Assembly: GCA_012514555.1 (NCBI GenBank)
Contig: JAAZAB010000165.1
Location: 1-13,429, forward strand
Source: Lentisphaerota bacterium
GTDB taxonomy: Bacteria > Verrucomicrobiota > Kiritimatiellia > JAAZAB01
Direction of reading: 5' to 3'
DNA: 13,429 nt
A model generated the notes under the pieces. The model searched no databases. It saw only the letters and a program-made list of their open reading frames with translations, and was not told where the DNA came from. The translations under genes were made by a program, and so were the position numbers. Shown in pieces: positions 1 through 13,429 of this stretch; the first letter of the stretch is position 1, and every line of letters starts with the position of its first letter.

Positions 1-138
1 CGCACTTGACCCTATATGGAGCAGTTCAGAGCAATCGAATATCCAATATCCAACAAGGAACTTCCAACATTCATCGGAATCCTTGGAATATTCCGTGTTG
101 GCTGTGAGGCGCTTTGGTTCAGCGGTGATGCAATCCGG

Positions 139-190
139 CTTCTGTAGCGCGCCACGGCGTGGCGCGATTTGCCGCGAACGTTCGGCGGCC
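139..190. repeat. 52-bp repeat element, copy 1, with an internal GC-rich palindrome (CGCGCCACG-G-CGTGGCGCG, 9-bp arms); the + strand RNA would read hairpin followed by AUUUG
   Basis: Positions 139-190 equal the reverse complement of 4378-4429 with 3 mismatches (49/52). The 36-bp core (139-174) is identical. The palindrome could form a stable stem-loop, so this is a REP-like or terminator-like element. Confidence 0.6.
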
Positions 191-434
191 GGGCCCATTC
201 TTCGCCGAAGCGGCTTTGAAGGGCAAGCCGTCCGTCCTCTAGGCGGACGGCCTCGGCCGCCGACGATATAGCCATGTCTCTCGCGGAAGGCGCAAAGGGA
301 TAGTTTGACTGTCCCCAGACACCATTCACTCAGGCAGAAGATAACTTGGAAATCAGGAAAGCAGGAAGGAAATTGCCCCTGCCTTCTCTCTTTTCCTGAT
401 GTTCCTGATTTCCTCATTCAACCCTTATGGACAC

Positions 435-524
435 TATCCCCTAGCTCCTATCCCCTATCCCCTAGCTCCTATCCCCTATCCCCTAGCTCCTATCCCCTAT
501 CCCCTCTATCCTATCCCCTCGTCC
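435..524. repeat. Tandem heptamer array of ~13 units (TATCCCC x9, TAGCTCC x3, plus degenerate TCTATCC / TCGTCC) with a 21-bp higher-order unit TATCCCCTATCCCCTAGCTCC (x3)
   Basis: Read directly from the sequence: the pattern is TATCCCC TAGCTCC TATCCCC TATCCCC TAGCTCC ... from 435. It continues straight into the right inverted repeat, which itself contains TGGATAT x2. Two ORF-track entries (305..571, 399..584) simply translate this repeat as PLAPIPY. Confidence 0.8.
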
Positions 525-557
525 TTGGATATTGGATATTCGATTGCTCTTTCTCGG

Positions 558-591
558 TTGACTTCCCCTGATTCCACGGCATAATGCCGTG
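558..591 (+). promoter_or_regulatory. Candidate sigma70-type promoter TTGACT(558-563)-N16-CATAAT(580-585) for the NfeD-flotillin operon, overlapped by a 17-bp perfect palindrome CACGGCAT-A-ATGCCGTG (575-591), a possible operator
   Basis: The -35 matches consensus at 5/6 and the -10 at 5/6, with 16-17 nt spacing. The palindrome arms are perfectly complementary over 8 bp. The element sits ~90 nt upstream of the 681 ATG. Confidence 0.35.
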
Positions 592-680
592 CATTGCGCT
601 TTATATTGCCCTTACGCCCGCGCGCGGATGACGCAGGATAAGGCGCAGCGCCAAGGACGGACAAAACCGGAGAAAACGCC

Positions 681-1289
681 ATGGAAACACTGGGCGCCTG
701 GTGGAACGGGCTGGGAACCGTGAACCAATGGTTTTACGGCGTGGCCTTCTTTTTCGGCGCGATCTTTCTGTGGCAGATGATCATGTCATTCATCGGCCTG
801 GAACATGACGTGGGGCTTGACACCCAGGTCGAGCCCGACTCAGTTCACGATACGCCGGACGACGCCACCCAGACCCTGGCGGCTTTCAAATTAATCAGCA
901 TCCGCTCAATCCTGGCCTTTCTGACGCTCTTCTCCTGGGGCGGCGCATTGTACCTCAATCAAGGCCTGCCCATGGGCCGCGCCCTGGGCTACTCCATTCT
1001 GTGGGGCCTGGCAGCCATGCTGGCGGTTTCTTTTATCTTCAGCCTGATGGGCAGAATGACGGAGTCCGGAAACATAAAAATCGGCTCTTGCCTGGGCGTC
1101 AACACCACTGTTTATCTCGACATTCCAGCCGGAGGCGTGGGAGAAATACGCGTCCCTTGCAGCGGAGTCATGACCCACATCAAGGCGCGCTCCGCAAAAG
1201 GCGACGCCATAAAGGCAGGCACGCCCGTCAAGGTTGTGCGCCTGGTGGAATCCAACACCGTTGAAGTCGAAACTGTCGAAGCCGGATAG
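681..1289 (+). CDS. NfeD-like membrane protein (YuaF/YqiJ family): N-terminal transmembrane helices plus a C-terminal OB-fold beta-barrel, the usual partner of flotillin/SPFH proteins
   Basis: 202 aa. There are hydrophobic helices (GVAFFFGAIFLWQMIMSFIGL, ILAFLTLFSWGGALYL, ILWGLAAMLAVSFIFSLMG) and then a soluble C-terminus (VYLDIPAGGVGEIRVPCSGVMTHIKARSAKGDAIKAGTPVKVVRLVESNTVEV) typical of the NfeD short form. A GGAGA RBS lies 7 nt before the ATG, and the gene sits immediately upstream of a flotillin gene. Confidence 0.75.
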   Translation: METLGAWWNGLGTVNQWFYGVAFFFGAIFLWQMIMSFIGLEHDVGLDTQVEPDSVHDTPDDATQTLAAFKLISIRSILAFLTLFSWGGALYLNQGLPMGRALGYSILWGLAAMLAVSFIFSLMGRMTESGNIKIGSCLGVNTTVYLDIPAGGVGEIRVPCSGVMTHIKARSAKGDAIKAGTPVKVVRLVESNTVEVETVEAG

Positions 1290-1345
1290 CAACGCAGCCA
1301 GCCGCCGGGCAGGCTGAACGCGAATTACGAAGAAAGGAACGCGAT

Positions 1346-2920
1346 ATGAGCGAAATGCTTTTGACCAGCCTTTGGATGATCGGACAGGTTCAGCCGGATG
1401 GGAATCCCGCGCCATTCCTGGTCTTTTTCCTGCTGTTGTTCCTCATAGTCATGCTGATGACTTTCGTGCGCCGCTACAAGCGCTGCCCAGCGAACAAGAT
1501 ACTGGTAATATACGGCAAGACCGGCAGCGGCGCGGCCAAGTGCATTCACGGCGGCGCCAAGTTCGTCTGGCCCCTGCTTCAGGCGTACGATTTCCTGGAC
1601 CTCGAGCCGTTCGTGGTGCCCATAGATTTGTCCAACGCGCTTTCGCAGGAAAACATCCGCGTGAGCGTTCCCACCTCGGTCACCGCCGCCATATCCAACC
1701 AGCCGGGGATCATGGAAAACGCGGCCGTCCGCCTGCTCGGGCTTACGACCCAGCAGATACAGACCCAGGCCCAGGACATCATCATCGGCCAGATGCGCGC
1801 GGTCATAGCCACCATGCGCATCGAGGACATCAACCGCGACCGCCAGGCCTTCATGAGCAAGGTCAACGAAGCCGTGGCCGTCGAGCTGGAAAAGATCGGA
1901 CTCTCCCTCATCAACGTGAACATCCGCGACCTTGACGACGAGTCCGGCTACATCAAGGCCATAGGCCGCAAGGCTGCGGCCGAGGCGGTCAACCAGGCCA
2001 ACGTGGACGTTGCCGAGCAGGAAAAGACGGGACAGACCGGCGTTGCGGAACGCCAGCGCGACCAGCGCGTTGCCGTTGCGGCCGCCACGGCGGACGCCCA
2101 GATCGGGGAATGGGAAGCCGAAAAGCGCAGGCGCCAGCAAGTTGCCGCGGCCCAGGCCCAGGCCGAGATCGGGGAAGCCGCGGCCGACCGTGAAAAACGC
2201 CAGAACATAGCCCGCCTCGACGCGGAAGCCGTCCATGCCGAGACCGACGCCAACGCGCAGAAGGCCCGGTTCCGCGCCGACCAAAAGGTTGCCGAAGAGG
2301 AATCGCGCAACAAGGGCGATTCCGCGTCGCGCGAAGCGGACGGCGCAATCCGCGTGGCCCAGGAGACAGCCGAGAAGAAGGCTGAAGACGCCCGCGCAAT
2401 CCGCGAGCAGTCCCGGCTCAACGCCGAGATCGTAGTGCCGGCTGAAGCGCAGCGGAAAAAGATAGTGATCGGCGCGGAGGCCGAGAAGCAGCAGGCCGTG
2501 CTCGTGGCCCAGGGCCAGGCCGACGCCATGCTCGCCAGGATGACGGCCGAGGGGCGTGGCGTCCAGGCAGTGCTTGACGGCAAGGCCCAGGGCTACCGGA
2601 ACCTCGTGGCGTCAGCCGGCGATCCCCAGGTTGCGACCTCGCTGCTCATCATTGAGAAGCTCCTGGAAATATCGCACGTCCAGGCCCAGGCCATCCAGAA
2701 CCTGCCGCTCGAAAAGATAGTTGTCTGGGACGGCGGCGGAACGGGCGCCGGCGGCGTGGCGGAGCTCGGCAGGAGAATCATGGGCGTGCTCCCGCCAATG
2801 CACGAGCTGGCGCGCCAGGTCGGCCTTGATTTGCCCGAATTCCTCGGCAAGATCAATGCCGCCGCAAAGGCGGAGGCGGCAAAAACGCCGCCTGAATCCG
2901 ACACAGGGGCCAAGTCCTGA
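1346..2920 (+). CDS. Flotillin-like SPFH/band-7 protein (FloT/YqiK family) with a long Ala/Glu/Gln-rich coiled-coil region
   Basis: 524 aa. It has an N-terminal TM segment (PFLVFFLLLFLIVMLMTF) and an SPFH core (KILVIYGKTGSGAAKCIHGGAKFVWPLLQAYDFLDLEP...ENIRVSV...IIGQMRAVIATMRIEDINRDRQAF). An extended AEAEKRRRQQVAAAQAQAEIGEAAADREKRQ-type EA-repeat coiled coil follows. A GAAAGGAA RBS precedes the ATG. Confidence 0.85.
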   Translation: MSEMLLTSLWMIGQVQPDGNPAPFLVFFLLLFLIVMLMTFVRRYKRCPANKILVIYGKTGSGAAKCIHGGAKFVWPLLQAYDFLDLEPFVVPIDLSNALSQENIRVSVPTSVTAAISNQPGIMENAAVRLLGLTTQQIQTQAQDIIIGQMRAVIATMRIEDINRDRQAFMSKVNEAVAVELEKIGLSLINVNIRDLDDESGYIKAIGRKAAAEAVNQANVDVAEQEKTGQTGVAERQRDQRVAVAAATADAQIGEWEAEKRRRQQVAAAQAQAEIGEAAADREKRQNIARLDAEAVHAETDANAQKARFRADQKVAEEESRNKGDSASREADGAIRVAQETAEKKAEDARAIREQSRLNAEIVVPAEAQRKKIVIGAEAEKQQAVLVAQGQADAMLARMTAEGRGVQAVLDGKAQGYRNLVASAGDPQVATSLLIIEKLLEISHVQAQAIQNLPLEKIVVWDGGGTGAGGVAELGRRIMGVLPPMHELARQVGLDLPEFLGKINAAAKAEAAKTPPESDTGAKS

Positions 2921-3072
2921 TGCGGTTCAACCCAGATTAGCGTTTGAAAAATGAACTATACTTACTACGGGCTGGGAGTATGTCAATACGCCTTCACCCG
3001 CTGCGCCTTGCATCTGCCGCACTCTGACCAATCGCAAAATCCGGGTTCCAAGGCCGCGGACGGCAGGCCCGA

Positions 3073-4317
3073 ATGAAGATACGCATCCTGTTCCGGTCGC
3101 TGGAGAACCGGAACTTCAGGCTTTTTTACGCCGGCCAGGGCATTTCGCTCATCGGCACCTGGATGCAGATGACGGCGGTCGCGTGGCTCGTTTGGCGAAT
3201 GAGCCACAACGCCATGCTGCTGGGCCTTGTCGGGTTCGCCTCGCGGATACCCACTTTCGTGCTTGCGCCTTTTGCCGGCGTCCTGATCGACCGCATGGAC
3301 CGGCGCCGGCTCGTCATGGCGACGCAGGCGGTGGCGATGCTCCAGGCGCTGGCGCTGGCCGGCCTGATGTTTTCCGGGTTCCTCGAGGTCTGGCATATCA
3401 TCGCGCTTTCGCTCCTGCTCGGGTTCATCAACTCTTTCGACGTGCCGGCGCGCCAGTCGTTCTTCATCCAGATGCTCGATCGGCGCGAGGATATCACGAA
3501 CGCCATTGCCCTCAACTCCACCATGGTCAACGGCGCACGGCTGATCGGCCCCTCGATTGCTGGGATCCTGATAGCGGCCTTCGGCGAAGCCGTATGTTTC
3601 CTGCTCAACGGCTTAAGCTACATCGCCGTCATTGCCGGGCTGATGATGATGCGCGTCCGTTCCAATCCGCGTCCGGCGCTGAAGACCGCGGCGCTGGACA
3701 ACCTCATCGAGGGCTTTCGCTACACCTTCGGCTTTCCGCCGATCCGCGCGCTGCTGCTCCTGGTGGCGCTGGTCAGCCTGGCGGGCGCGTCATACACGCA
3801 GCTCCTGCCCATATTCGCGCAGCAGGTCCTGCGCGGCGACGCGCGCACGCAAGGGTTCCTGGTTTCCGCGGCCGCGGTCGGCGCGCTCGGCGGGGCGCTA
3901 TACCTGGCCTCGCGCAGCAGCACGCGCGGGCTCGGGCGGCTCATAGCCATTGCGCCCACTGTTTTCGGCGCCGGCCTGATCGCCATGGGATTGTCGCAGC
4001 GGCTCTGGCTGACGCTGATGATTATGCCGGTCGTCGGGCTCGGGCTGATGGTGCAGATGGCTTCGACAAACACCATGCTGCAGACGATCGTCGAGGACGA
4101 CAAGCGCGGGCGGGTGATGAGCTTCTACTCGATGGCTTTCATGGGAATGGTTCCGCTCGGCAGCCTGGGCTCCGGCATCCTGGCGCGATTCATCGGAGCG
4201 CCATGGGTGGTGATTCTCGGCGGCGCCTGCTGCATCGCGGCATCGGCCGTCTTCGTCCAAAGGCTGCCGGCCCTGCGCATCCTGGTCCACCCTGTTATGC
4301 CGGCGGATGCACAATGA
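3073..4317 (+). CDS. MFS transporter, DHA3/EntS-like (enterobactin-exporter family), ~12 TM helices
   Basis: 414 aa. The N-terminus (FRLFYAGQGISLIGTWMQMTAVAWLV) and motifs (LLGLVGFASRIPTFVLAPFAGVLIDRMDRRR, NGLSYIAVIAG) are characteristic of the MFS_3/EntS family. Hydrophobicity is consistent with 12 TM helices. Confidence 0.85.
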   Translation: MKIRILFRSLENRNFRLFYAGQGISLIGTWMQMTAVAWLVWRMSHNAMLLGLVGFASRIPTFVLAPFAGVLIDRMDRRRLVMATQAVAMLQALALAGLMFSGFLEVWHIIALSLLLGFINSFDVPARQSFFIQMLDRREDITNAIALNSTMVNGARLIGPSIAGILIAAFGEAVCFLLNGLSYIAVIAGLMMMRVRSNPRPALKTAALDNLIEGFRYTFGFPPIRALLLLVALVSLAGASYTQLLPIFAQQVLRGDARTQGFLVSAAAVGALGGALYLASRSSTRGLGRLIAIAPTVFGAGLIAMGLSQRLWLTLMIMPVVGLGLMVQMASTNTMLQTIVEDDKRGRVMSFYSMAFMGMVPLGSLGSGILARFIGAPWVVILGGACCIAASAVFVQRLPALRILVHPVMPADAQ

Positions 4318-4377
4318 CGCTCTCCCCCAGCCTGTGCCGCCATCCAACCCGTCAAAACAAGGAGGGCGCACGGCCTC

Positions 4378-4429
4378 GGCCGCCGGACATGCGCGGCAAA
4401 TCGCGCCACGCCGTGGCGCGCTACAGAAG
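4378..4429. terminator. 52-bp repeat element, copy 2 (inverted relative to copy 1), between the convergent MFS and tad-like operon 3' ends; the - strand RNA would read GC-rich hairpin + AUUUG, a likely bidirectional or operon terminator
   Basis: The 36-bp core CGGCAAATCGCGCCACGCCGTGGCGCGCTACAGAAG (4394-4429) is the reverse complement of 139-174. The palindrome CGCGCCACG-C-CGTGGCGCG lies at 4403-4421. It sits in the 135-bp gap between the MFS stop (4317) and the ATPase stop (4453). Confidence 0.5.
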
Positions 4430-4452
4430 GCAAGGCGGGCGCGCATCCGGCT

Positions 4453-5541
4453 TCAGGCGCGCTCATCGGCCCATGGCTCGGGCAGGTTGAGGCGCCTGGC
4501 CTCTTCGGCGAAGCGCGGCGTTGCGCCGGTGAAAACGTGATGCCCGGCCACCTTTCCATCGGGCGCGAGGCCTTCGGGCCTGAAGACATAAATATCCTGC
4601 ATTTTATAGACGCCCTCCTCGAGCCCGAGGACCTCGGAAATATGCGTTATTTTGCGGGAGCCGTCGGAGAGGCGGGCGGTCTGGATAATCACGCCGATCG
4701 CGCCTGCGACCATGGCGCGGACAGCCGGCATGGGGATGTCAATCCCGCTCAGGAGCGTGCAGGTTTCGAGGCGCGAGAGCGTGTCCAGGGGCGTGTTCGC
4801 ATGAATGGTGGACATGCTCCCGGCATGGCCAGTGTTGAGCGCCTCGAGCAGGTCCAGAGCCTCTCCGCCCCGCACCTCGCCGATCACCAGCCGGTCCGGG
4901 CGCAGGCGCAGGGCCGCTATGAGCAGGTCGCGTATCGTGACCTCGCCCTTGCCGTCCTTGTCGGGCTTTCGCGTCTCGAAGCGCACGGTGTGCGGCTGCT
5001 GGAGTTGAAGTTCGCTGGCGTCCTCGATAACCAGGATGCGTTCGCCCGGGTCTATGATGCCGCTGAGCACGTTCAGGACCGAGGTTTTTCCCGACGAGGT
5101 GGCGCCGGAAACGACAAGGTTCTTGTGGAGCCGGACGATGGTCTCGATCAGGCGCACACCGCCTTCCGAAATGCTGCCGAACCTGACAAGCTCGGCAGGC
5201 GTCAGCTTCTCCTTTCTGAACTTGCGTATGGAAACCACCGTTCCGGTCCGAGACAGCGGGGGTATGACGGCCTCGAGGCGGGAGCCGTCCGGCAGGCGCG
5301 CTTCGAGAATGGGGTTTTCCTCGCCGAGCATGCGGCCGACGCTCCGGGCAACGTTCATGGCGGCCGCTCGCAGCGCGTTCTCGCTGCAGAAGCAGGCATT
5401 GGTGCTCTCGATCCGGCCCCGCCGCTCCACGTAGATTCGGTCCGGGCCATTGATCATTATTTCCGAGACATCAGGATCGTCAAGGAACGGCGCAATCGGC
5501 TCGAAGAAAAGATACAGGAATGCATTCGGATCGGTTGGCAT
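4453..5541 (-). CDS. Short CpaF/TadA/VirB11-family secretion ATPase (N2 + C-terminal ATPase domains only, no N-terminal extension); the second ATPase of the operon
   Basis: 362 aa. Walker A is GATSSGKTS, the Asp box/Walker B are [12 protein letters not shown] and [13 protein letters not shown], and the His box is [13 protein letters not shown]. The N-terminal [22 protein letters not shown] is the typical start of the CpaF N2 domain. An AGGGGA RBS lies 8 nt upstream, and only 10 nt separate it from the upstream gene stop. Confidence 0.85.
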
Positions 5542-5551
5542 CGAGTTTCCC

Positions 5552-7444
5552 CTATTTGCTCAAAAACGGCTTTTCACGGCTTGGAATGACTTCCTCGCCG
5601 CCGGCCGGAAAACTGCCCTTGCCCCGGCCGCCCGCCTGTTCGGACGGCTGCGCAGGGGCAGCCGCCCGGCCCGGGGCTGATTCTCCGCCTTTGGGCGCCT
5701 GGTCCTTGGCCGCCGGAGCCGCCGGAGCGGGCTGCGCCGGGAGAATGGAAGCGCCGCTTTTGAGACGCCGGTCGATCACGGCCCGGGCGTCCTGTTCGGC
5801 AGGCAGGAGCGCGCGCAGTTCCTTGAGGCGTTTCCGGGCCATGGCGGCATACTGGTCCGAGGATGAGGCCACATCGAGAATCTGCATGTAAAGGGCGGCC
5901 GCGTCGCGAACGGAGCCGCGCGACTCGAGCACATAGGCTTTGTTGAAGGCTGTCCCGGTAAAAGCGGCGATGTCCATGCGCAGCCGCGCAAACTCGGCAT
6001 CATGCCCGGGTGACCCGGCGGCAAAGCCGGCGATCAGGAGACTTTTCAGCGCTCGGCTGTTCAGCCTGGCCGCCTCGTAGAGCTCGCCGCGCGCCTTGGC
6101 CGCGGCGGCGTCCGCCATCGCTTTCCGGCCATCCTGCTCGTATTCCTCACGGCCGGGGCCCAGGCGCTTGCGAAGATCGTCCATTCTGGCCAACGCGATC
6201 GTCCTGGCGCCGGGATAGTTCCGGAACGCCGGAGAATCCAGGAGAGCGGTCCCGGCCTCGATGGCCGCGACGTCATTGCTTTGCGCCAGAAGCGCGTCCA
6301 GCGCGGCAGCCTGGGCCAGTAGATTCCCGCGGGCGGCGAGGTCGGCTTTCTGGGAGAAGGACAAGCCGGCCTGCGCCGCCAGGCCAGAGCACACGGACTG
6401 CGCGTCCGGTATCCGCCAGGCATTGAACATGTCATCGGCCTGCTTGAACTGGCCGGCAAGCTCAATCTGGCGCCCGGCCAGGCTGACCAGGTCCTGGCGC
6501 TTGTACTCGTTCAACACCTTCGCGCCGTCAAGAACGGAGAGAACGTCGGCATATCGGGCCTGTTGAAGAAATGCGGCGGCCTTTTCGCAGGCCTCCTCGC
6601 CGCGGAGGTAGGCTTCGAATTCCGACACCTGGCCGTCCGCGGGCGACATTGTCTTCATGCGCTCCAGCGCGCGCCGGGCGCGGGGGATGTCGCCGCTGTC
6701 AATGCACTCCATGCCTTCGGCAAAAGCCTCCTGCATGTGCGCGCCCCGGATTGCGCGCAGGAGGCCGAGCGCCTGAGTATTGCGCGGGTCCAGCGCGACC
6801 GACTCGTTCAACAGGGCCGCGGCCGCCAGGTAATCGTTGCTTGCATAAAGCGCATACTGCCCCTGCTGCATCAGCTGCGCGGCGCGGCGATAGATGTCGG
6901 CCCTGCCATTCAGGGCGGACCCCTCGCCGGGGCCGGGGCCGGCCGGGGCGTTGGACTCCGCGTTAAGCGCCGGAGCAGGCCCGGCCGCCGGGCTGTCGTC
7001 CGCCTGCGGCCGGGCTCTCTTCAACATCCAAGCGGCCAGGGTCGCCAGGCACAGGACAAGGAGAACGGCAACGAGCATCTTGTTCCTGGATCCGGGCGCG
7101 GCCGCGCCGACCGCTCCCTCGTGCGCCGGCACGATGAAGTTGAAATCTCCCAGCGCGACCTGTTTTCCGGGCCGGAGATTCGCTTCGCGCCGGGCAAGCC
7201 GGCGCCCATCCACCTGCACGCCGTTCACGCTGCCAAGGTCGCGGATGTAAAGGCCCCGGGGCGTGAGCGCAAGCTCGGCGTGCCTTGGCGCAAGCGAAGG
7301 GGAATCCAGGCAAAAGTCGCAGAGCGCATCGCGGCCGAGAACGCGCGGCTTGCCGCCGAGAGGCAACTCCAACTCAAGGACGTCGGAGCCGTCGCGGCGC
7401 TTCAGCGCAATTTTCAGGGAAGGCACAAGGTTTTCTTCATTCAC
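5552..7444 (-). CDS. Bitopic membrane protein: N-terminal cytoplasmic FHA domain, single TM helix, large periplasmic Ala-rich TPR-like repeat domain
   Basis: 630 aa. The FHA signature is RVLGRDALCDFCLDSPSLAPRHAELALTPRGLYIRDLGSVNGVQVDGRRLARREANLRPGKQVALGDFNF (the GR...SR-H...S-NG...GD pattern). The TM helix is MLVAVLLVLCLATLAAWML. The C-terminal ~480 aa are helical and Ala/Leu-rich with TPR-like periodicity (AAALLNESVALDPRNTQALGLLRAI..., AAFLQQARYADVLSVL...). A GGAG RBS is present. Confidence 0.7.
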   Translation of the reverse strand: MNEENLVPSLKIALKRRDGSDVLELELPLGGKPRVLGRDALCDFCLDSPSLAPRHAELALTPRGLYIRDLGSVNGVQVDGRRLARREANLRPGKQVALGDFNFIVPAHEGAVGAAAPGSRNKMLVAVLLVLCLATLAAWMLKRARPQADDSPAAGPAPALNAESNAPAGPGPGEGSALNGRADIYRRAAQLMQQGQYALYASNDYLAAAALLNESVALDPRNTQALGLLRAIRGAHMQEAFAEGMECIDSGDIPRARRALERMKTMSPADGQVSEFEAYLRGEEACEKAAAFLQQARYADVLSVLDGAKVLNEYKRQDLVSLAGRQIELAGQFKQADDMFNAWRIPDAQSVCSGLAAQAGLSFSQKADLAARGNLLAQAAALDALLAQSNDVAAIEAGTALLDSPAFRNYPGARTIALARMDDLRKRLGPGREEYEQDGRKAMADAAAAKARGELYEAARLNSRALKSLLIAGFAAGSPGHDAEFARLRMDIAAFTGTAFNKAYVLESRGSVRDAAALYMQILDVASSSDQYAAMARKRLKELRALLPAEQDARAVIDRRLKSGASILPAQPAPAAPAAKDQAPKGGESAPGRAAAPAQPSEQAGGRGKGSFPAGGEEVIPSREKPFLSK

Positions 7445-7462
7445 AGGTTCGGCTCCGCTCGA

Positions 7463-8491
7463 TCAGGGGTTGAATCTCACCCGTTCCGCCTCGTCCCATT
7501 TCCGGGCCCCGTACTTGAACTGCCATGAATTGCGGTCCGGGAACAGGCGCATGATGCAGTCTGCCGCATCGAAGGCATCCGGCTTGTTTCCAAGCCCGAG
7601 CGCCTGTTCCAGGCGTCGGCGCTGGCGGTAGAAAGTTTCCTCGCGGAAGAAGAAGCACAACTGCATCTGCGCCAGGGCCGCATCATATTCGGCGGGCCTC
7701 GGGTCCCGGCGGTATGTGGCGGCCAGCGCCGCGGCGTACTGCTGCATGGCGCCGTTGTAGTAATTCACGTTGGAGTCGCGCCCCATGAGAAGTTCATTAC
7801 CGTAGCGGATGGCGTTGGCGACATCGTTGCTTGTCGCAAGGGCCGGAAGCCGCCGAACAAAGGATTCCCCCGCCAGCCTGGCGTCCTGCAAAGGCGCAAT
7901 GGAAACGCCCTTGATGAAGCCGTCGAACAAGTCCGGACCGTTCGTCAAGGCCGCGGGAAAGACGAACAGGAACCTGTAGGAGTCCGTTTCGTTTTTGACG
8001 ACCAGGCCCAGGACGGCCATCTTTGCAGTGTCGCCCGAGAACCTGACGGCCGGGCATCCGAAAAGGTTGGTTGGCGCCCTGTCCAGGAGCACGAACCCGG
8101 GATAGACAAGCCGCGCGCTGCTTTGAAAATTATCCACCTCGGTGTCCATGTCCAGGAGGCAGCGGCAGGGGTCGCGGTTCGCGTCATAGAACATCGTCGC
8201 CTCTGTTCCGGGGCACTCGAACTGGCGCTTGGCCAGCATGCTGAGGGACTCCATCTGCACCCAGCCCGGCGGCATCCGGATAACGGCGGCGAACTCGCTG
8301 TCCTCGTACAAGTCCGGAGTTTTTTTTGCGGAATCGCGGCAGCCGGCGCTTCCGGCGGCCGCGAGCGCGAGCAGAAGCGCGGGCGCCAGGCGCATTATAA
8401 AATCCGGCAGGCGCATCCCGCGCCCGGATCCGTCCGACGGCATGAGCGCGCGCGGGGCGCCGGGCAATTCCGTATCAGGGCTCATTATCAT
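7463..8491 (-). CDS. Putative lipoprotein of unknown function (lipobox LAAAGSAGC); start codon uncertain (internal ATGs at 8416 and 8395 give a cleaner signal peptide)
   Basis: 342 aa in the longest ORF. MRLAPALLLALAAAGSAGC fits a type-II signal peptide with a lipobox Cys. I recognise no conserved domain. The gene is tightly packed in the operon, 18-19 nt from each neighbour. Confidence 0.55.
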   Translation of the reverse strand: MIMSPDTELPGAPRALMPSDGSGRGMRLPDFIMRLAPALLLALAAAGSAGCRDSAKKTPDLYEDSEFAAVIRMPPGWVQMESLSMLAKRQFECPGTEATMFYDANRDPCRCLLDMDTEVDNFQSSARLVYPGFVLLDRAPTNLFGCPAVRFSGDTAKMAVLGLVVKNETDSYRFLFVFPAALTNGPDLFDGFIKGVSIAPLQDARLAGESFVRRLPALATSNDVANAIRYGNELLMGRDSNVNYYNGAMQQYAAALAATYRRDPRPAEYDAALAQMQLCFFFREETFYRQRRRLEQALGLGNKPDAFDAADCIMRLFPDRNSWQFKYGARKWDEAERVRFNP

Positions 8492-8510
8492 TCATCCTCC
8501 TGTCCCGGCG

Positions 8511-8858
8511 TCATTCGATCAGCCTCAGAGCGTCGCCGATGGCCAGCGCCCAGCGCGACAGCGAGCCGGCCGCGGTTTCCAGCGTATGCCGCCCGCCGGG
8601 GTCCCCGCAGACGAGCATGCGCCATGGCTTCAGGTTTTCCGCCAGCCCGGCAACGCGCCATTCAGCGTCGAGAAATATCACGTCTATGGGCATGCGCATG
8701 AAAAACGTGTGTATGGCGCGGCAGTCCGGGAAGAACATGCCCTCGCCCGGCTCCAGCCCAACCCGGCCCATCAGGCCGCGCATGCGTTTGCGCAGGCTGA
8801 ACGCGCCGGCCACGCCGGTCAGCAGCACCCGCCCTGTTGTTGCATGCTCAAGGATCAT
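8511..8858 (-). CDS. DUF192 (UPF0127/COG1430) family protein
   Basis: 115 aa. Family-typical motifs are GLMGR, GMFF, IHTFFMRMPIDVIFLD and TLETAAG. The size and order of the motifs match DUF192. Confidence 0.7.
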   Translation of the reverse strand: MILEHATTGRVLLTGVAGAFSLRKRMRGLMGRVGLEPGEGMFFPDCRAIHTFFMRMPIDVIFLDAEWRVAGLAENLKPWRMLVCGDPGGRHTLETAAGSLSRWALAIGDALRLIE

Positions 8859-8870
8859 ATTGGCCCAGTG

Positions 8871-9794
8871 TCATTGGTTCATGTAGTACTGGATCATGAC
8901 AGGCCCGATCAGCATGATCAGGATTGACGGAAAGATGCAGCTTAGCAGGGGCAGCAGCATTTTGACGGGCGCTTCCATCGCCAGCTTTTCCACATATTGC
9001 GCCTTGCGCTCCCGGAACTCGCGGGCCTGGATGCGAAGGAGCGGGCCGAGCTCCGTGCCCAGTTCCTCGGCCTGGGTCATCATGTCGATTGTCACGGTAA
9101 TCGGCTCAATGCCTATGCGCCTGGCCATGTCCTTCATGGCATTGACGCGCCGCGCGCCGAGGTGGATTTCGTTGAGCAGGCGCATCAGCTCCTCCGAGAG
9201 CGGGCTCAGCGGAATGTTGCCCACGATCCGCTGGATCGCTATGGTCATGTCCATTCCGGATTCCATGGACAGCGTCAGCAGATCGAGAAAAAATGGCCAG
9301 TCGGACAGAATCTGGCGCCGGCGCGCGGCCCGGGCATTGTCGAGCGGCAGCACGGGAAAGAAGAAGGCCGCAAGGGCCAGGATGGCGACAAAGAGCAGGC
9401 CCGAGCCCAGGTCGGACTCCCGCTCGTGCGCGCGCTGGAAAACGAAGAGCAATGCCGCGCCGAGCGCGCCGGAGCCCAGCGCAAGAACGAACTGCAGCGA
9501 AACCATCTCCTCGGGCGTGAGAGCGGTGTCCACGCCGGCCTGGCGCAGCCGCGTGCGCATTCCGCGCACGAGGGCGTTATCCGCGCCAAGAACCCTGTTG
9601 AGGAGCCGCGTCATTCCGTGCAGCAGGGGTGTGATCCAGAGCATCCAGCCCACGCGCTTGCGCCGGTATTGCGACAGGAACATCCCGTAGCCTTCCATGC
9701 GCTTTGCCAGGAGCGAATAGGCCAGCATGACGGTGGCCGCGAAAAGCAGGATCAAGCCCAGCGTCATTTCATTGAACAATTCGCTCATGCCCAC
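8871..9794 (-). CDS. tadC: Tad/Flp platform protein TadC-like (GspF/T2SSF family, polytopic inner-membrane protein)
   Basis: 307 aa. It has an N-terminal TM helix, a cytoplasmic T2SSF domain (TLSMESGMDMTIAIQRIVGNIPLSPLSEELMRLLNEIHLG...), and C-terminal TM helices (LLPLLSCIFPSILIMLIGPVMI). It starts 6 nt after the tadB stop. Confidence 0.8.
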   Translation of the reverse strand: MGMSELFNEMTLGLILLFAATVMLAYSLLAKRMEGYGMFLSQYRRKRVGWMLWITPLLHGMTRLLNRVLGADNALVRGMRTRLRQAGVDTALTPEEMVSLQFVLALGSGALGAALLFVFQRAHERESDLGSGLLFVAILALAAFFFPVLPLDNARAARRRQILSDWPFFLDLLTLSMESGMDMTIAIQRIVGNIPLSPLSEELMRLLNEIHLGARRVNAMKDMARRIGIEPITVTIDMMTQAEELGTELGPLLRIQAREFRERKAQYVEKLAMEAPVKMLLPLLSCIFPSILIMLIGPVMIQYYMNQ

Positions 9795-9800
9795 CCCGGC

Positions 9801-10664
9801 CTAAAGACGAATGGATACTATCTTGCGGATCATGAAGAACCCGATAACGTCAAGCACCACGACTGCCGCCAGCATGGCCCAGCCCATCATTGTAGTGTAC
9901 ATCAGCCGCATCAACTCCGGGTTGATGAAATGGATGATGATGCCCAGGGCCACGGGAATAAGCACCACGATGATGGCCTGGAGTTTGCCCTGGCTTGTCA
10001 GGGCCTTGATCTTGCCGTCTATCCGGTTGCGCTCGCGTATCGTGTCGCTGAGCTGGCCGAAGACCACCGGCAGTTCGCCGCCGGTCTGTATCGTCAGGCG
10101 GACCGCGGCGACGAGAAGCATCAGGTCCGCGTCGTTCAGGCGCTTGTTCATGTTTTCAAGGGCTTCCTCGATGCGCACGCCGAGGTTGATCTCGCGCACG
10201 GTAAGCCGGAACTCCTGCCCGGCCGGGTCCGGGAGCTGGCGCGCGGCCAGGTCAAGAGCCTGGAGAAAAGAAAAGCCGCTGCGCAGTCCGTTGCTGATGG
10301 TGTTCATTGCGGCGATGAGCTGGGAATTGAACTTCTCACGGCGCCGGGCGACCTTCATGTGAATGAGAATGTCCGGGATGAACGCGCCAATGCCGGCGGC
10401 CGCGGCGGCCAGGATAAAAGGGACGGGGCGCATGAGGCCGGACGACACGACGAGCGCGATGACGCCCAGCAGGAAGGCCGATATCACCTTCATATGCATC
10501 AGGCGCTCCACGGGAATGAACGAGGCGCCCTGCTGGATCAGCTCGGCCGTGCGGCCAAGGTAACGCTCCTCGTACTCGCCATAGCCGCCCGCAAGCGAGC
10601 GGAGCAGGAGAAAAAACAGCAGGCTGACCGAGATGAACGAGACCGCTAGAATTACTGCCAGCAT
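9801..10664 (-). CDS. tadB: Tad/Flp platform protein TadB-like (GspF/T2SSF family); the real start is at the ATG at 10664, not the longer track ORF reaching 10874
   Basis: 287 aa from MLAVILAVSFISVSLLFFLLL. The T2SSF domain is FSFLQALDLAARQLPDPAGQEFRLTVREINLGVRIEEALENM...LTIQTGGELPVVFGQLSDTIRERNR. A GGGGA RBS lies 7 nt upstream. The longer ORF-track version overlaps the upstream ATPase gene in another frame. Confidence 0.8.
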   Translation of the reverse strand: MLAVILAVSFISVSLLFFLLLRSLAGGYGEYEERYLGRTAELIQQGASFIPVERLMHMKVISAFLLGVIALVVSSGLMRPVPFILAAAAAGIGAFIPDILIHMKVARRREKFNSQLIAAMNTISNGLRSGFSFLQALDLAARQLPDPAGQEFRLTVREINLGVRIEEALENMNKRLNDADLMLLVAAVRLTIQTGGELPVVFGQLSDTIRERNRIDGKIKALTSQGKLQAIIVVLIPVALGIIIHFINPELMRLMYTTMMGWAMLAAVVVLDVIGFFMIRKIVSIRL

Positions 10665-10680
10665 GTCGGAATCCCCGCGC

Positions 10681-12306
10681 TCATTTGACGACGAAAATGC
10701 CCATGTCCACGTCCACGCCCCGCTCGCGCAGGCGCATGATGAAGTTCGGGATCGTGCCCGTGGGCTGGAATTCGCCCACAACCCGGCCCTCGGCGTCGTA
10801 GCCCGACTGGCGGAACTCGAATATGTCCTGGAGCGCGATCTCTCCGCCCCCGGCCATGGGCAGCACCTCGGCAATGGCCATGACCTTTCTTGAGCCGTCC
10901 GAAAGGCGCGAGACCTGGCAGACCAGGTTCACGGCCGCCCCGATCTGCTGGCGGATGGCGGCCACGGGCAAATCCATTCCCGACATCAGCACCAGCGTTT
11001 CAAGGCGGGCCATCACATCCTTCGGCGAGTTCGCGTGCACGGTGGTGAGCGACCCGTCATGCCCCGTGTTCATGGCCTGCAGCATGTCAAGGGCCTCCCC
11101 GCCGCGGCACTCGCCGACAACTATGCGGTCGGGCCGCATGCGCAGCGCGTTCCGGACGAGCGTGCGTATGGAAATCTCGCCCTTGCCTTCGATGTTCGGC
11201 GGGCGCGCCTCCATGCGCACCACGTGCTCCTGGTCAAGGCGCAGCTCCGCGGCGTCCTCGATGGTCACGATGCGCTCGGCGCGCGGAATGAACGAGGACG
11301 CGATGTTGAGGAGCGTTGTCTTGCCGGAGCCGGTGCCGCCCGAGATGACCGTGTTCTGCCTGCGCTCGACCGCGATCCTGAGAAAAGCCGCCATCGCGGG
11401 GCTGAGCGTCTTGAACCCCACCAGGTCCTCCATCGTCAGCGGCTTTGCGGGGAACTTGCGGATGTCGAGGGATGCGCCGTCAATGGCCACGGGCGATATC
11501 ACCGCGTTCACCCTGAAACCGTCCGGAAGGCGCGCGTCAACGATCGGGGAGCTTTCGTCAATGCGCCGCCCGAGCGGGCCCACGATGCGCTCGATGATGG
11601 CCTCGAGCTGGCCGGGGCTGTCAAACTTGCGGTTCGAGGGCGCAAGCCTGCCCCTGCGCTCGACAAAAATCCTGTTCCGGCCGAAGCACATTATCTCCGT
11701 GATCTCCGGGTCGTTGATCAGGTCGTCGAGCGGGCCGAAGCCGAGCACGTCGTGCACGACCTCCTTCTGAAGCACATCGGCCGCGACGCCCTGGCGCTCG
11801 GCCTCGGCGCTCAGCTCGCCGATTATTTCGCCGATGAGCTTGCGGGCTCGCTGCCTGAGCTCCAGGGATGCCGCGGCGCCAATGGTGTCGAGGCTCTTGA
11901 GGTCCATCCGGTCGAGCAGTATCTCGTGAACCTTGCGCTTGAGCTGCTCGCGGGCGCCCGCGTTCTCCCCGATATCCGGCCTGGCGGCGGCGGCGGCATC
12001 CTCGACGTCGGACGCCTCCTCGAAGTAGATCATGTTCCATTCGCCGACGGTCAGCTTGTCGCCATTGTGCAGGCGCTGCTCGCGGCCGGCCACCGGGAGG
12101 CCGTTCACGGAAACGGGATGGCGCGAGGACACCGGCTGGACATAAAGCCAGCCGCGCACGTTCAGCACTCGGCAATGCATGCCGGCGACACCCTTTGCCG
12201 GGAGGCGAAGGTCGCAGGAGGACGACGACCCGACCGTGACGAACTCCCTGGTTTTCAGGAAAGACAGGTCCGTCTGCGTTCCGTCGGCATGGAGAAGGTA
12301 AATCAC
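10681..12306 (-). CDS. cpaF: CpaF/TadA-family secretion ATPase with an N-terminal FHA domain fused in place of the usual N-terminal extension; probable GTG start at 12306
   Basis: The FHA-like region is VIYLLHADGTQTDLSFLKTREFVTVGSSSSCDLRLPAKGVAGMHCRVLNVRGWLYVQPVSSRHPVSVNGLPVAGREQRLHNGDKLTVGEW. The CpaF N-terminal helical region follows (EQLKRKVHEILLDRMDLKSLD). Walker A is GGTGSGKTT, Walker B is DRIVVGECRGGEA, and the His box is TGHDGSLTTVHAN. The track ORF (to 12498) overlaps the secretin gene. The GTG at 12306 has a GGTGGTG RBS ~7 nt upstream and leaves a 25-nt gap after the secretin stop. Confidence 0.85.
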   Translation of the reverse strand: MIYLLHADGTQTDLSFLKTREFVTVGSSSSCDLRLPAKGVAGMHCRVLNVRGWLYVQPVSSRHPVSVNGLPVAGREQRLHNGDKLTVGEWNMIYFEEASDVEDAAAAARPDIGENAGAREQLKRKVHEILLDRMDLKSLDTIGAAASLELRQRARKLIGEIIGELSAEAERQGVAADVLQKEVVHDVLGFGPLDDLINDPEITEIMCFGRNRIFVERRGRLAPSNRKFDSPGQLEAIIERIVGPLGRRIDESSPIVDARLPDGFRVNAVISPVAIDGASLDIRKFPAKPLTMEDLVGFKTLSPAMAAFLRIAVERRQNTVISGGTGSGKTTLLNIASSFIPRAERIVTIEDAAELRLDQEHVVRMEARPPNIEGKGEISIRTLVRNALRMRPDRIVVGECRGGEALDMLQAMNTGHDGSLTTVHANSPKDVMARLETLVLMSGMDLPVAAIRQQIGAAVNLVCQVSRLSDGSRKVMAIAEVLPMAGGGEIALQDIFEFRQSGYDAEGRVVGEFQPTGTIPNFIMRLRERGVDVDMGIFVVK

Positions 12307-12331
12307 GTTTTCACCACCACTGTTCCGCCAG

Positions 12332-13429
12332 TTACCAGATGCGGTACAATTTCGGACGCTTCCGGGGCTTTGCGCCGGCCTTGGGCCGGGGCGCCTCGGG
12401 CGCCTGGTACACGCCGGTGCGCATTTCCTCAAGGTAGGCGTCGACCCGGGGCTGAACGTCCCGCGGAATGGGCGCGGGCGCCCGGGCGCCGAACTCATCC
12501 GGCGTGAGCGCCGACAGAATCCGCGGCGTCACGATGGCCAACAACTGAGTGTCCTCGTCCTTCCTGCTCTTGGAGCCGAAAATCCAGTCCAGAACCGGGA
12601 GATCGCCGAGGATTGGGCTGCGGGACTTGTAGAAGTTCTTCATGTTCTCGAGCAGCCCGGAAAGCACTATGCTCTGCCCGACCTGGCAAACCACGGTGCA
12701 CTCGGTTTCGAACTTGTCGAGGTTGAGCTGCTCGCTCCCGGACTTGGCCGTGGGTATGGACACCGTGATCTTCATCGTGTTAAGGATTTCCTTCTCGCTC
12801 ACGAAAGAGGGCCGGACCTCGAGCTGGACGCCGTACTCCACGTTCTTCATGTCCGCGGCCTGGACGCCCGAGACCTCGTAGTAGTATTCGCCCCCGGACA
12901 GGAACTTGCCGGCCTCGTTGTTCTTGGTGCACAGGCGGGGATGCGCGAGGATGGTCGCGTTGCCTTCATCCATCAGCACCTTGAGCTGCGGCGCGATCTG
13001 GGCGGACCAGGTCAGCGTAACGTCCATGGCGCTGTAGTCGGCATCCTTGCGGGTCTGCTGGCCCTGGACGCCGCCGTTCAGGATCAGGCCCTGCCCGCCG
13101 TCGAGCAGGTTGACGCCGATGTCGAACCCGCTGCTCTTCGTGACTTTCAGGAACATGATCTCGGTTTCGATCATGACGTCCCGAACCGAGAGCATGTCCA
13201 CCACGTTCGCCACCTGGGTCCGCGCAAGGCTCAGCACGTTCGACCGCTGGCTGTTGCCGAACACGAACCCGGAAATAAAGGCGGTCTGGCCGACGAGGTT
13301 GATCTTGACGGTTTCCACGCCGGCCGTGCGCCGGATGAAATCGGCAATCACCTCGTTTGACGGGCCGCTGTCGAAAACCGCGAGGTTGACCACCACGTCC
13401 GAGAACGCGGCCGCGATTTTCTGAACGCG
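12332..13429 (-). CDS. cpaC: Secretin (CpaC/RcpA/GspD family), C-terminal secretin domain plus part of the N-domains; the N-terminus lies beyond the window end
   Basis: It carries the canonical secretin C-terminal signature ILGDLPVLDWIFGSKSRKDEDTQLLAIVTPRIL, preceded by VEYGVQLEVRPSF...KITVSIPTAKSGSEQ. The reading frame is open to the window edge. A Pro/Lys-rich basic C-terminal tail (PRPKAGAKPRKRPKLYRIW) follows the secretin motif. Confidence 0.85.
   Translation of the reverse strand, partial: RVQKIAAAFSDVVVNLAVFDSGPSNEVIADFIRRTAGVETVKINLVGQTAFISGFVFGNSQRSNVLSLARTQVANVVDMLSVRDVMIETEIMFLKVTKSSGFDIGVNLLDGGQGLILNGGVQGQQTRKDADYSAMDVTLTWSAQIAPQLKVLMDEGNATILAHPRLCTKNNEAGKFLSGGEYYYEVSGVQAADMKNVEYGVQLEVRPSFVSEKEILNTMKITVSIPTAKSGSEQLNLDKFETECTVVCQVGQSIVLSGLLENMKNFYKSRSPILGDLPVLDWIFGSKSRKDEDTQLLAIVTPRILSALTPDEFGARAPAPIPRDVQPRVDAYLEEMRTGVYQAPEAPRPKAGAKPRKRPKLYRIW

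Follow-up and report, generated by a model that had tools for sequence, protein, structure and literature searches.

A short CpaF at the end of a Tad operon

The 13,429-nucleotide stretch analysed here (the window; positions 1 to 13,429 of the forward strand of contig JAAZAB010000165.1, from the Lentisphaerota metagenome-assembled genome (MAG) GCA_012514555.1) carries a row of minus-strand Tad genes packed with 6–25 bp between them. The row reads secretin, a full-length CpaF-type ATPase with an FHA domain (FHA-CpaF), TadB, TadC, a DUF192 protein, a 342-aa protein, an FHA-transmembrane (FHA-TM) protein and, as its last gene, a second CpaF-type ATPase, here called short CpaF. The original prediction, made from the sequence alone, described this open reading frame (ORF; 4453–5541, 362 aa) as an N-terminally minimal CpaF paralogue with all catalytic boxes intact that closes the operon, and it does end the row, as the next gene, encoding a major facilitator superfamily (MFS) transporter, is convergent and lies 135 bp beyond it. 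We found that short CpaF belongs to a conserved clade of catalytically intact CpaF-type ATPases without the N-terminal three-helix bundle, a clade that occurs in several phyla.

Short CpaF can be assigned with high confidence to the CpaF/TadA family as a catalytically complete ATPase. The protein matches Pfam family PF00437 (T2SSE, E 4.8e-51), and the nearest relative of known structure is Caulobacter CpaF (8rkd/9e24, E 2e-104, CpaF residues 146–492), with the next solved relatives far behind (archaeal GspE2, 1e-39; VirB11, 6e-34; then FlaI and PilT). An AlphaFold2 (AF2) model built from 47 orthologues (mean pLDDT 88, pTM 0.78) consists of an N-terminal domain (NTD) and a RecA-like domain only. 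The top Foldseek matches of this model are CpaF structures (TMq 0.80–0.84 at 48% identity; best 8rjf, TMq 0.84), while PilT and PilU reach a TMq of about 0.55–0.59 at 14–19% identity, and VirB11 is much less similar than CpaF in both sequence and fold. Identical copies of the gene are present on four short public contigs, one of them from the Lentisphaerota MAG GCA_033812835.1, and the public record of the identical protein is named "CpaF family protein [Lentisphaerae bacterium]". Membership in other families of this kind was rejected on bit scores: the best NCBIfam match, TIGR03819 ("TadA family conjugal transfer-associated ATPase", the short actinobacterial-type TadA), scored 288.4 bits against a cut-off of 373.15, the type IV secretion ATPases TrbB and VirB11 scored 210.8 against 304.55 and 207.6 against 249.95 bits, respectively, and the PilT family TIGR01420 (pilT_fam) scored 41.6 bits against 319.1.

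Loss of the three-helix bundle and hinge

In CpaF, a disordered region (residues 1–79) is followed by a three-helix bundle (NTD1, residues 80–146), hinge 1, the NTD, hinge 2 and the ATPase domain (PMC12019362, PMC11300603). Since the alignment starts at CpaF residue 146, short CpaF begins exactly at hinge 1 and is without the first ~145 CpaF residues, which make up the disordered region and the bundle. In the AF2 model, the N-terminus forms two short helices (7–12 and 14–20) that run straight into the NTD strands, with 10 residues before the NTD. No canonical start codon was found in-frame upstream of the ATG, and the orthologues share the N-terminus of short CpaF. The hinge glycines G147 and G149 are also absent and correspond to F12 and E14; position 147 is a phenylalanine in 81% of the short clade, and position 149 is not conserved. 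The G147A/G149A hinge mutation abolishes CpaF function (PMC11300603). A survey of 292 CpaF orthologues distinguished three architectures, every one with the bundle, and took bundle-NTD-ATPase to be the minimum for CpaF in every phylum (PMC12019362), a scheme that has no place for the short clade.

The functional residues described for CpaF are K287/T288, E312, E357/R359, H382, the NTD arginine fingers R217/R223 and the trans finger R347 (PMC12019362, PMC11300603). Their counterparts in short CpaF are all present and identical: K152 and T153 in a Walker A motif (G146-x4-G151-K152-T153) that reads GATSSGKT and fits GxxxxGKT, E177 in the Asp box, E222 and R224 in Walker B, H247 in the His box, the NTD fingers R82 and R88, and the trans finger R212. 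They are 99–100% conserved across the 68 members of the short clade, including the catalytic glutamate and the arginine fingers, whose loss would have pointed to a pseudo-ATPase. At the position of CpaF D215, short CpaF has E80, and 81% of the clade have an aspartate. The GATSSGKT wording is usual in the subclade from the Planctomycetes-Verrucomicrobia-Chlamydiae (PVC) bacteria, with the variants GGTSSGKT and GPTSSGKT, and many non-PVC members keep the canonical GGTGSGKT. Compared with its closest relative, in the PVC locus L085 (about 87–88% amino acid identity), short CpaF has a dN/dS of 0.15 and is thus under purifying selection.

A bundle-less clade in several phyla

The original prediction had proposed placing both ATPases of the operon phylogenetically. 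All CpaF-type ORFs were collected from 80 related genomic loci, the top 80 among 527 by similarity to the query, and a neighbour-joining (NJ) tree was calculated from 95 core regions, with duplicate and partial sequences dropped and archaeal FlaI and GspE2 as outgroups. The sequences form two groups. The first carries the bundle and a G-x-G hinge and contains Caulobacter CpaF, every FHA-CpaF, including that of the window, and the first ATPase of the Polyangiales operons. The second, with short CpaF, lacks the bundle; the overhang before the NTD is at most ~10–13 residues in most members, and the hinge is replaced by F-x-x-P. In the rooted tree, the bundle-less clade was monophyletic in 96/100 bootstraps, the bundle-bearing forms in 40/100 and all CpaFs together in 100/100. 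The outgroups FlaI and GspE2 carry the bundle, and its absence is therefore a derived loss; the simplest reading is that the bundle was lost once, anciently, within the CpaF family. Bundle-less members were found in PVC bacteria, Polyangiales and other Myxococcota, Bradymonadales, Bdellovibrionota, Planctomycetota and one Hydrogenedentes MAG. No paper on this clade or on a second Tad motor was found in the literature searched, which is not proof of absence.

It is hardly credible that short CpaF arose by recent duplication and truncation or is a pseudo-ATPase in decay. The protein is shorter than the usual CpaF, and the wording of its Walker A motif is unusual, but it shares only 47% identity with the FHA-CpaF of the same operon, compared with 60–88% with orthologues elsewhere (60–72% for the ~362-aa orthologues of Lentisphaeria, Victivallales, Kiritimatiellia and Verrucomicrobiota). 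Together with the deep monophyletic clade, the dN/dS of 0.15 and the complete catalytic set with a fitting Walker A motif, this identity pattern refutes the idea. Of the description as a truncated paralogue, the missing N-terminus stands, whereas the gene is not a local duplicate but a member of an old short subfamily.

Several bundle-less members are longer (P0046, P0048, P0069, P0082 and P0099; ~480–545 aa, 63–67% identical to short CpaF), and ORFs in L006, L009, L013, L020, L026 and L027 are also of this type. In these proteins, an N-terminal beta-rich domain of ~100 aa and a low-complexity linker are joined directly to the NTD with no three-helix bundle. A Pfam search with the five extensions gave one weak match to an FHA-fold family (Yop-YscD_cpl, E 0.0075), a hint that the domain may be a degenerate FHA domain. 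Many clade members have a precomputed match to PF27713, with none on record for the short CpaF of the window. A locus labelled Candidatus Sulfotelmatobacter (L013:5133-12477, possibly a binning error) contains three CpaF-type genes within 7 kb, namely a bundle-bearing FHA-CpaF, a bundle-less CpaF and a third form with the hinge and a Walker A motif reading GATGAGKT. The Bdellovibrionota members (L073, L078 and L084) share 83–92% identity across Bdellovibrio, Halobacteriovorax marinus and Bacteriovorax stolpii, which is unusually high for such distant predators and suggests a strongly constrained role in this phylum.

Changes at platform-facing positions

Group-separating columns were defined as those at least 85% conserved within both groups with differing residues. 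Five such columns were found (long to short form, Caulobacter CpaF numbering): R198N, V200A, T306V, N329D and M366L. Positions 198 and 200 lie in helix 5 and position 329 in the central (pore) loop, and the CpaF structure papers place sites in helix 5, in loop 8 and in the central loop at the interface with CpaG/CpaH. The central-loop residue E331 is kept in 25/27 long forms; it is N, K, R, H or D in the short clade and D196 in short CpaF, which retains both glycines of the E331-G-x-G motif. Similarly, D208 in loop 8 is kept in 26/27 long forms, is D or N in the short clade and is G73 in short CpaF. According to the same papers, CpaF function is abolished by D208K and by a central-loop mutant, and a contact of the three-helix bundle with the platform proteins' N-terminal helices is predicted. 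Taken together, the loss of the bundle and hinge and the changes in helix 5, in loop 8 and in the central loop mean that every element implicated in platform coupling is lost or changed in the short clade, while the machinery for ATP hydrolysis is untouched.

Organisation of the operon

The features of the window are given in Table 1; its GC fraction is about 0.54–0.69. FHA-CpaF has a class III architecture (FHA, linker, three-helix bundle, NTD and ATPase domain), and its alignment to CpaF begins at residue 94, indicating that the bundle is present; its hinge reads LGFGP. As listed, the ORFs of FHA-CpaF (10681–12498) and TadB (9801–10874) overlap the preceding genes. The likely start of FHA-CpaF is a GTG at 12306, after GGGGAG and past the secretin stop, and that of TadB is a methionine codon (ATG) at 10664, just past the FHA-CpaF stop.

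Table 1. Annotated features in the window, in ascending order of position.
Feature	Position	Strand	Details
MFS transporter gene	3073-4317	plus	Convergent on the end of the row
Hairpin, GC-rich	4398..4420	minus	8 bp, then AUUUG; 33 nt past the short CpaF stop codon
Short CpaF-family ATPase	4453..5541	minus	362 aa, ATG start; NTD (N2D-like) and RecA-like ATPase domain only
FHA - transmembrane - helical/TPR-like protein	5552..7444	minus	630 aa; PF00498 FHA, E 4.5e-13
Conserved 342-aa protein	7463..8491	minus	N-terminal hydrophobic lipoprotein-like segment; same position in L001, L002, L085
DUF192 protein	8511..8858	minus	115 aa; precomputed PF02643 on the identical L001 gene and the corresponding L085 gene
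TadC-like platform protein (T2SSF domain)	8871..9794	minus	PF00482, E 1.6e-13
TadB-like platform protein	9801..10664	minus	~287 aa; PF00482, E 4.6e-17; start inferred from translation
Full-length FHA-CpaF	10681..12306	minus	~541 aa; FHA, E 6.8e-10; T2SSE, E 3.5e-60
Secretin	12332..13396	minus	PF00263, E 6.7e-30; ORF comes to 33 bases from the window edge; N-terminus possibly outside it

The stop of the FHA-TM gene and the ATG of short CpaF are separated by 10 bp. In L019 and L059, short CpaF is likewise preceded by an FHA-TM protein; in Polyangiales loci, L011 among them, such a protein is encoded one or more genes further upstream. In L085 (4649–6537), the counterpart of the FHA-TM gene is annotated as two separate genes of 239 and 386 aa; the split may be real or may stem from a frameshift or an assembly error. 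The DUF192 gene has a counterpart at the same position in L019 (tblastn), and Pfam and NCBIfam searches with the 342-aa protein gave no match. Both the FHA-TM protein (E 3.8e-4) and the secretin (E 8.5e-8) have weak NCBIfam matches to the Akkermansia "Amuc_1098 family type IV pilus outer membrane protein", which hints at a PVC-specific outer-membrane pilus component.

A scan of positions 4200–9000 called no promoter between genes, the only sigma-70-like match being inside a coding sequence, and no terminator 3' of short CpaF. The hairpin in Table 1, seen in the minimum free energy fold, was not flagged and is a candidate weak terminator; its energy is ordinary for its composition (z -0.6), and the operon end is therefore placed by the convergent MFS gene and not by a terminator. 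Beyond this gene (681–2920) lie genes for a 202-aa membrane protein (no Pfam match, NfeD-like by eye) and a flotillin-like SPFH/Band 7 protein of 524 aa that includes a long stretch of charged coiled sequence; this pair is also found at that place in L085.

Genomic context of the clade

For all loci, the ORFs were clustered and representatives were annotated with Pfam. The gene order of the window is repeated in L085 and in the Verrucomicrobiota locus L019. Among the 20 PVC loci with at least 8 kb of flank on one side, 16 contain Tad genes (counted as Flp pilin, prepilin peptidase, TadE/G, CpaB, secretin, TadB/C or long CpaF), 12 a Hanks-type Ser/Thr kinase and seven a PP2C phosphatase. In some PVC loci, short CpaF stands at the end of a module of Flp pilin, prepilin peptidase, TadE-like and TadG-like genes; in others, it is divergent or convergent to a block of CpaB, secretin, FHA-CpaF, TadB, TadC and FHA-TM genes a few kb off. 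Polyangiales and related MAGs have the order CpaB, secretin, CpaF (with bundle), TadB, TadC, FHA-TM protein, TPR lipoprotein and short CpaF. The kinase is the next gene downstream of short CpaF in 8/24 PVC and 9/34 non-PVC loci. In PVC loci, the PP2C phosphatase is often an immediate neighbour, with the ATPase gene often between phosphatase and kinase, and in one locus an FHA-sigma54 activator adjoins short CpaF. The linkage to Tad genes is thus strong for the window's own lineage and for Polyangiales; other lineages show none.

The shared gene order and the Tad genes in most PVC loci place short CpaF in the same cluster as FHA-CpaF and not in an unrelated neighbouring system, and it is likely a component of this genome's Tad machine. 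Alternatively, short CpaF could act independently of Tad, as an ATPase partnering the adjacent Ser/Thr kinase in some other process, its place in the operon reflecting co-regulation or chance linkage. This would fit the directly adjacent kinases, the isolated but highly similar Bdellovibrionota members, the isolated tadA3 paralogue listed in a Bdellovibrio preprint (bioRxiv 10.64898/2026.07.08.737194) and the Bradymonadales, in which short CpaF and a divergent kinase stand among cytochrome c maturation (ccm) genes with no Tad gene within 10 kb. However, the Tad linkage recurs in PVC bacteria and Polyangiales in differing orders and orientations, which argues for function and not chance, short CpaF is translationally close-coupled to the FHA-TM gene of the Tad operon in the window, and the neighbourhood encodes no further known class of partner for CpaF-type ATPases, so that we consider this explanation unlikely. 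In the Bradymonadales-type loci L040, L042, L044, L045, L047, L050 and L056, the pair of short CpaF and a kinase-like gene has a CcmC-like gene upstream and CcmE and CcmF genes downstream, a conserved and odd placement.

Given a place in the machine, short CpaF could be a second assembly or secretion motor, polymerising a different pilin set or exporting a substrate via the same secretin, independent of the FHA gate. Such a role would agree with the fully intact catalytic site and with clusters that hold several Flp, TadE and TadG genes, with many PVC loci placing the gene at the end of this module and not beside TadB/TadC; the beta-rich, weakly FHA-like domain that several relatives carry at their own N-termini would also suit a regulated assembly motor. 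No second set of platform genes is found alongside, though. Short CpaF also has neither the bundle nor the hinge, and mutating these in Caulobacter CpaF abolishes extension; the loop 8 and central-loop residues that CpaF needs for extension are not conserved either, making an additional assembly motor rather improbable. Beyond what was originally predicted, our analysis adds the specific loss of bundle and hinge, the deep multi-phylum clade and the recurrent company of Ser/Thr kinases, PP2C phosphatases and FHA proteins.

Comparison with known systems

Short CpaF shares the family and fold of Caulobacter CpaF and Aggregatibacter TadA (8rkd, 8rjf and 9e24), with 48% identity over NTD and ATPase domain and the same Walker A/B, Asp and His boxes and three arginine fingers. 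The genomic setting is likewise that of a Tad operon with a secretin and TadB/TadC, encoded in the same gene row with short CpaF as the fourth gene downstream of TadC, and Flp pilins are found in related loci. In contrast to these proteins, short CpaF lacks the disordered region, the bundle, the G147/G149 hinge, D208 and E331, and it is the second CpaF of its operon, whereas Caulobacter and Aggregatibacter have one. The view in the Tad field is that one bifunctional CpaF both extends and retracts the pilus.

In type IV pili, PilT consists of only N2D and the C-terminal domain (CTD), and PilB has extra N-terminal domains. The retraction ATPases PilT and PilU of type IVa pili belong to the same superfamily as short CpaF and, like it, are built of N2D and ATPase domain, lacking the additional N-terminal domains that the assembly motor has. 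They also work alongside a longer assembly-type paralogue in one machine, as short CpaF has a co-encoded FHA-CpaF with FHA domain, linker and bundle. Short CpaF is not a sequence member of this group, no AIRNLIRE motif is visible in its sequence, and a functional parallel would be convergent.

The contact-dependent killing (Kil) machine of Myxococcus xanthus (PMC8460266) resembles the system of the window in its main ATPase with an N-terminal FHA fusion, the several FHA proteins in the cluster, the lack of a visible TadZ and the many conserved genes without known function. The likeness is drawn from the description of Kil and not from the KilF sequence, and there are differences: Kil is described with one ATPase, KilF, compared with the two CpaF-type genes found here, and the host is a Lentisphaerota MAG not known for predation. 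The Kil secretin is short and has no N0 domain (PMC8460266); the secretin ORF of the window comes to 33 bases from the window edge, and its N-terminal region may lie outside. A search aimed at a Myxococcus xanthus clade member returned Bradymonadales proteins instead.

Several TadA-type ATPases per genome have also been listed for the Tad-bearing Bdellovibrio bacteriovorus, in which the rcpA2-tadA2 module is dispensable and the isolated tadA3 is uncharacterised (bioRxiv 10.64898/2026.07.08.737194). Bdellovibrionota do carry isolated bundle-less clade members, of which tadA3 may be one. The gene in the window stands within an operon and is not isolated. Finally, in Pseudomonas type VI secretion, a Hanks-type kinase, a PP2C phosphatase and FHA proteins (PpkA/PppA/Fha1) are encoded with an envelope-spanning nanomachine. 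This likeness is one of gene content only; the machine is a different one, FHA is here fused to the motor, and kinase and phosphatase genes are found in related loci and not in the window.

A possible second motor

With moderate confidence, we favour the reading that short CpaF is the second motor of an FHA- and phosphorylation-gated, Kil-like Tad machine, alternating with FHA-CpaF and plausibly acting in disassembly or as an FHA-independent partner. It would be a working hexameric ATPase of the CpaF/TadA family, cut back to the two core domains, NTD and ATPase. FHA-CpaF, whose FHA domain would bind phospho-threonine, may act as the phosphorylation-gated assembly motor, docking on TadB/TadC via its three-helix bundle, loop 8 and central loop. 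Short CpaF would then engage the platform differently, or only once FHA-CpaF is released, and could drive an antagonistic or FHA-independent step, most plausibly pilus disassembly or retraction, so that the two ATPases would relate to each other as PilT does to PilB. A retraction-type role as a PilT-like antagonist of FHA-CpaF, as proposed by this analogy, is tentative. Tentative, too, is the generalisation that a dedicated antagonist motor arose independently within the Tad/CpaF lineage when the three-helix bundle was lost, as a convergent re-invention of PilB/PilT. Under it, a large group of Tad-like machines of PVC bacteria and Polyangiales, and perhaps also of the predatory Bdellovibrionota and Bradymonadales, would have two motors, an FHA-gated assembly CpaF and a bundle-less, PilT-like disassembly CpaF, switched by Ser/Thr phosphorylation.

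Several points weigh against a second motor of this kind. We infer the direction of work and the partners of short CpaF. Caulobacter CpaF from which the bundle was removed (residues 1–146) had no function and gave no detectable protein in vivo (PMC12019362, PMC11300603), and a bundle-less CpaF may therefore not couple to the TadB/TadC platform at all. The N-terminal disordered region promotes retraction in Caulobacter CpaF, which does not fit a rule by which less N-terminus makes a retraction motor. No kinase or phosphatase adjoins short CpaF in the window. The Bdellovibrionota and Bradymonadales members are found away from Tad genes, for example beside ccm genes or acyl-CoA dehydrogenases, and these isolated and, in predatory lineages, highly conserved members could mean a conserved role that is not tied to a pilus. 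In addition, the trees are NJ trees on a sample biased to relatives of the query, and the topology within either group should not be over-read.

Instead of acting as a motor itself, short CpaF might be a partner or regulator of FHA-CpaF that forms mixed hexamers or caps or competes for the platform, tuning the main motor without mechanical work of its own. Mixed rings are sterically conceivable, as the two proteins share 47% identity along the entire NTD-ATPase core, inter-subunit arginine finger and elements of NTD/CTD packing included. Their genes are co-transcribed. On the other hand, every catalytic residue is conserved across the 68 sequences, which argues for ATP turnover of its own, clade members occur in loci without a long CpaF, and the PilT/PilU and PilB paralogues studied to date are homohexamers (PMC6821130). 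A purely regulatory role is thus highly unlikely, and a second motor remains our preferred reading.

The presence of a conserved and intact bundle-less CpaF clade inside Tad clusters, beside a full-length FHA-CpaF and in several phyla, means that the picture of a single motor with a minimum architecture is incomplete. As cultured carriers of the clade exist (Halobacteriovorax marinus, Bacteriovorax stolpii and Lujinxingia litoralis), the question of its role can be tested. Should it act as an antagonist or as an alternative motor, the short form would be a natural experiment on the function of bundle and hinge and would represent a second, independent origin of two-motor pili. It would then also offer a handle on how kinase, PP2C and FHA proteins control pilus dynamics by phosphorylation in Kil-like contact-dependent machines.

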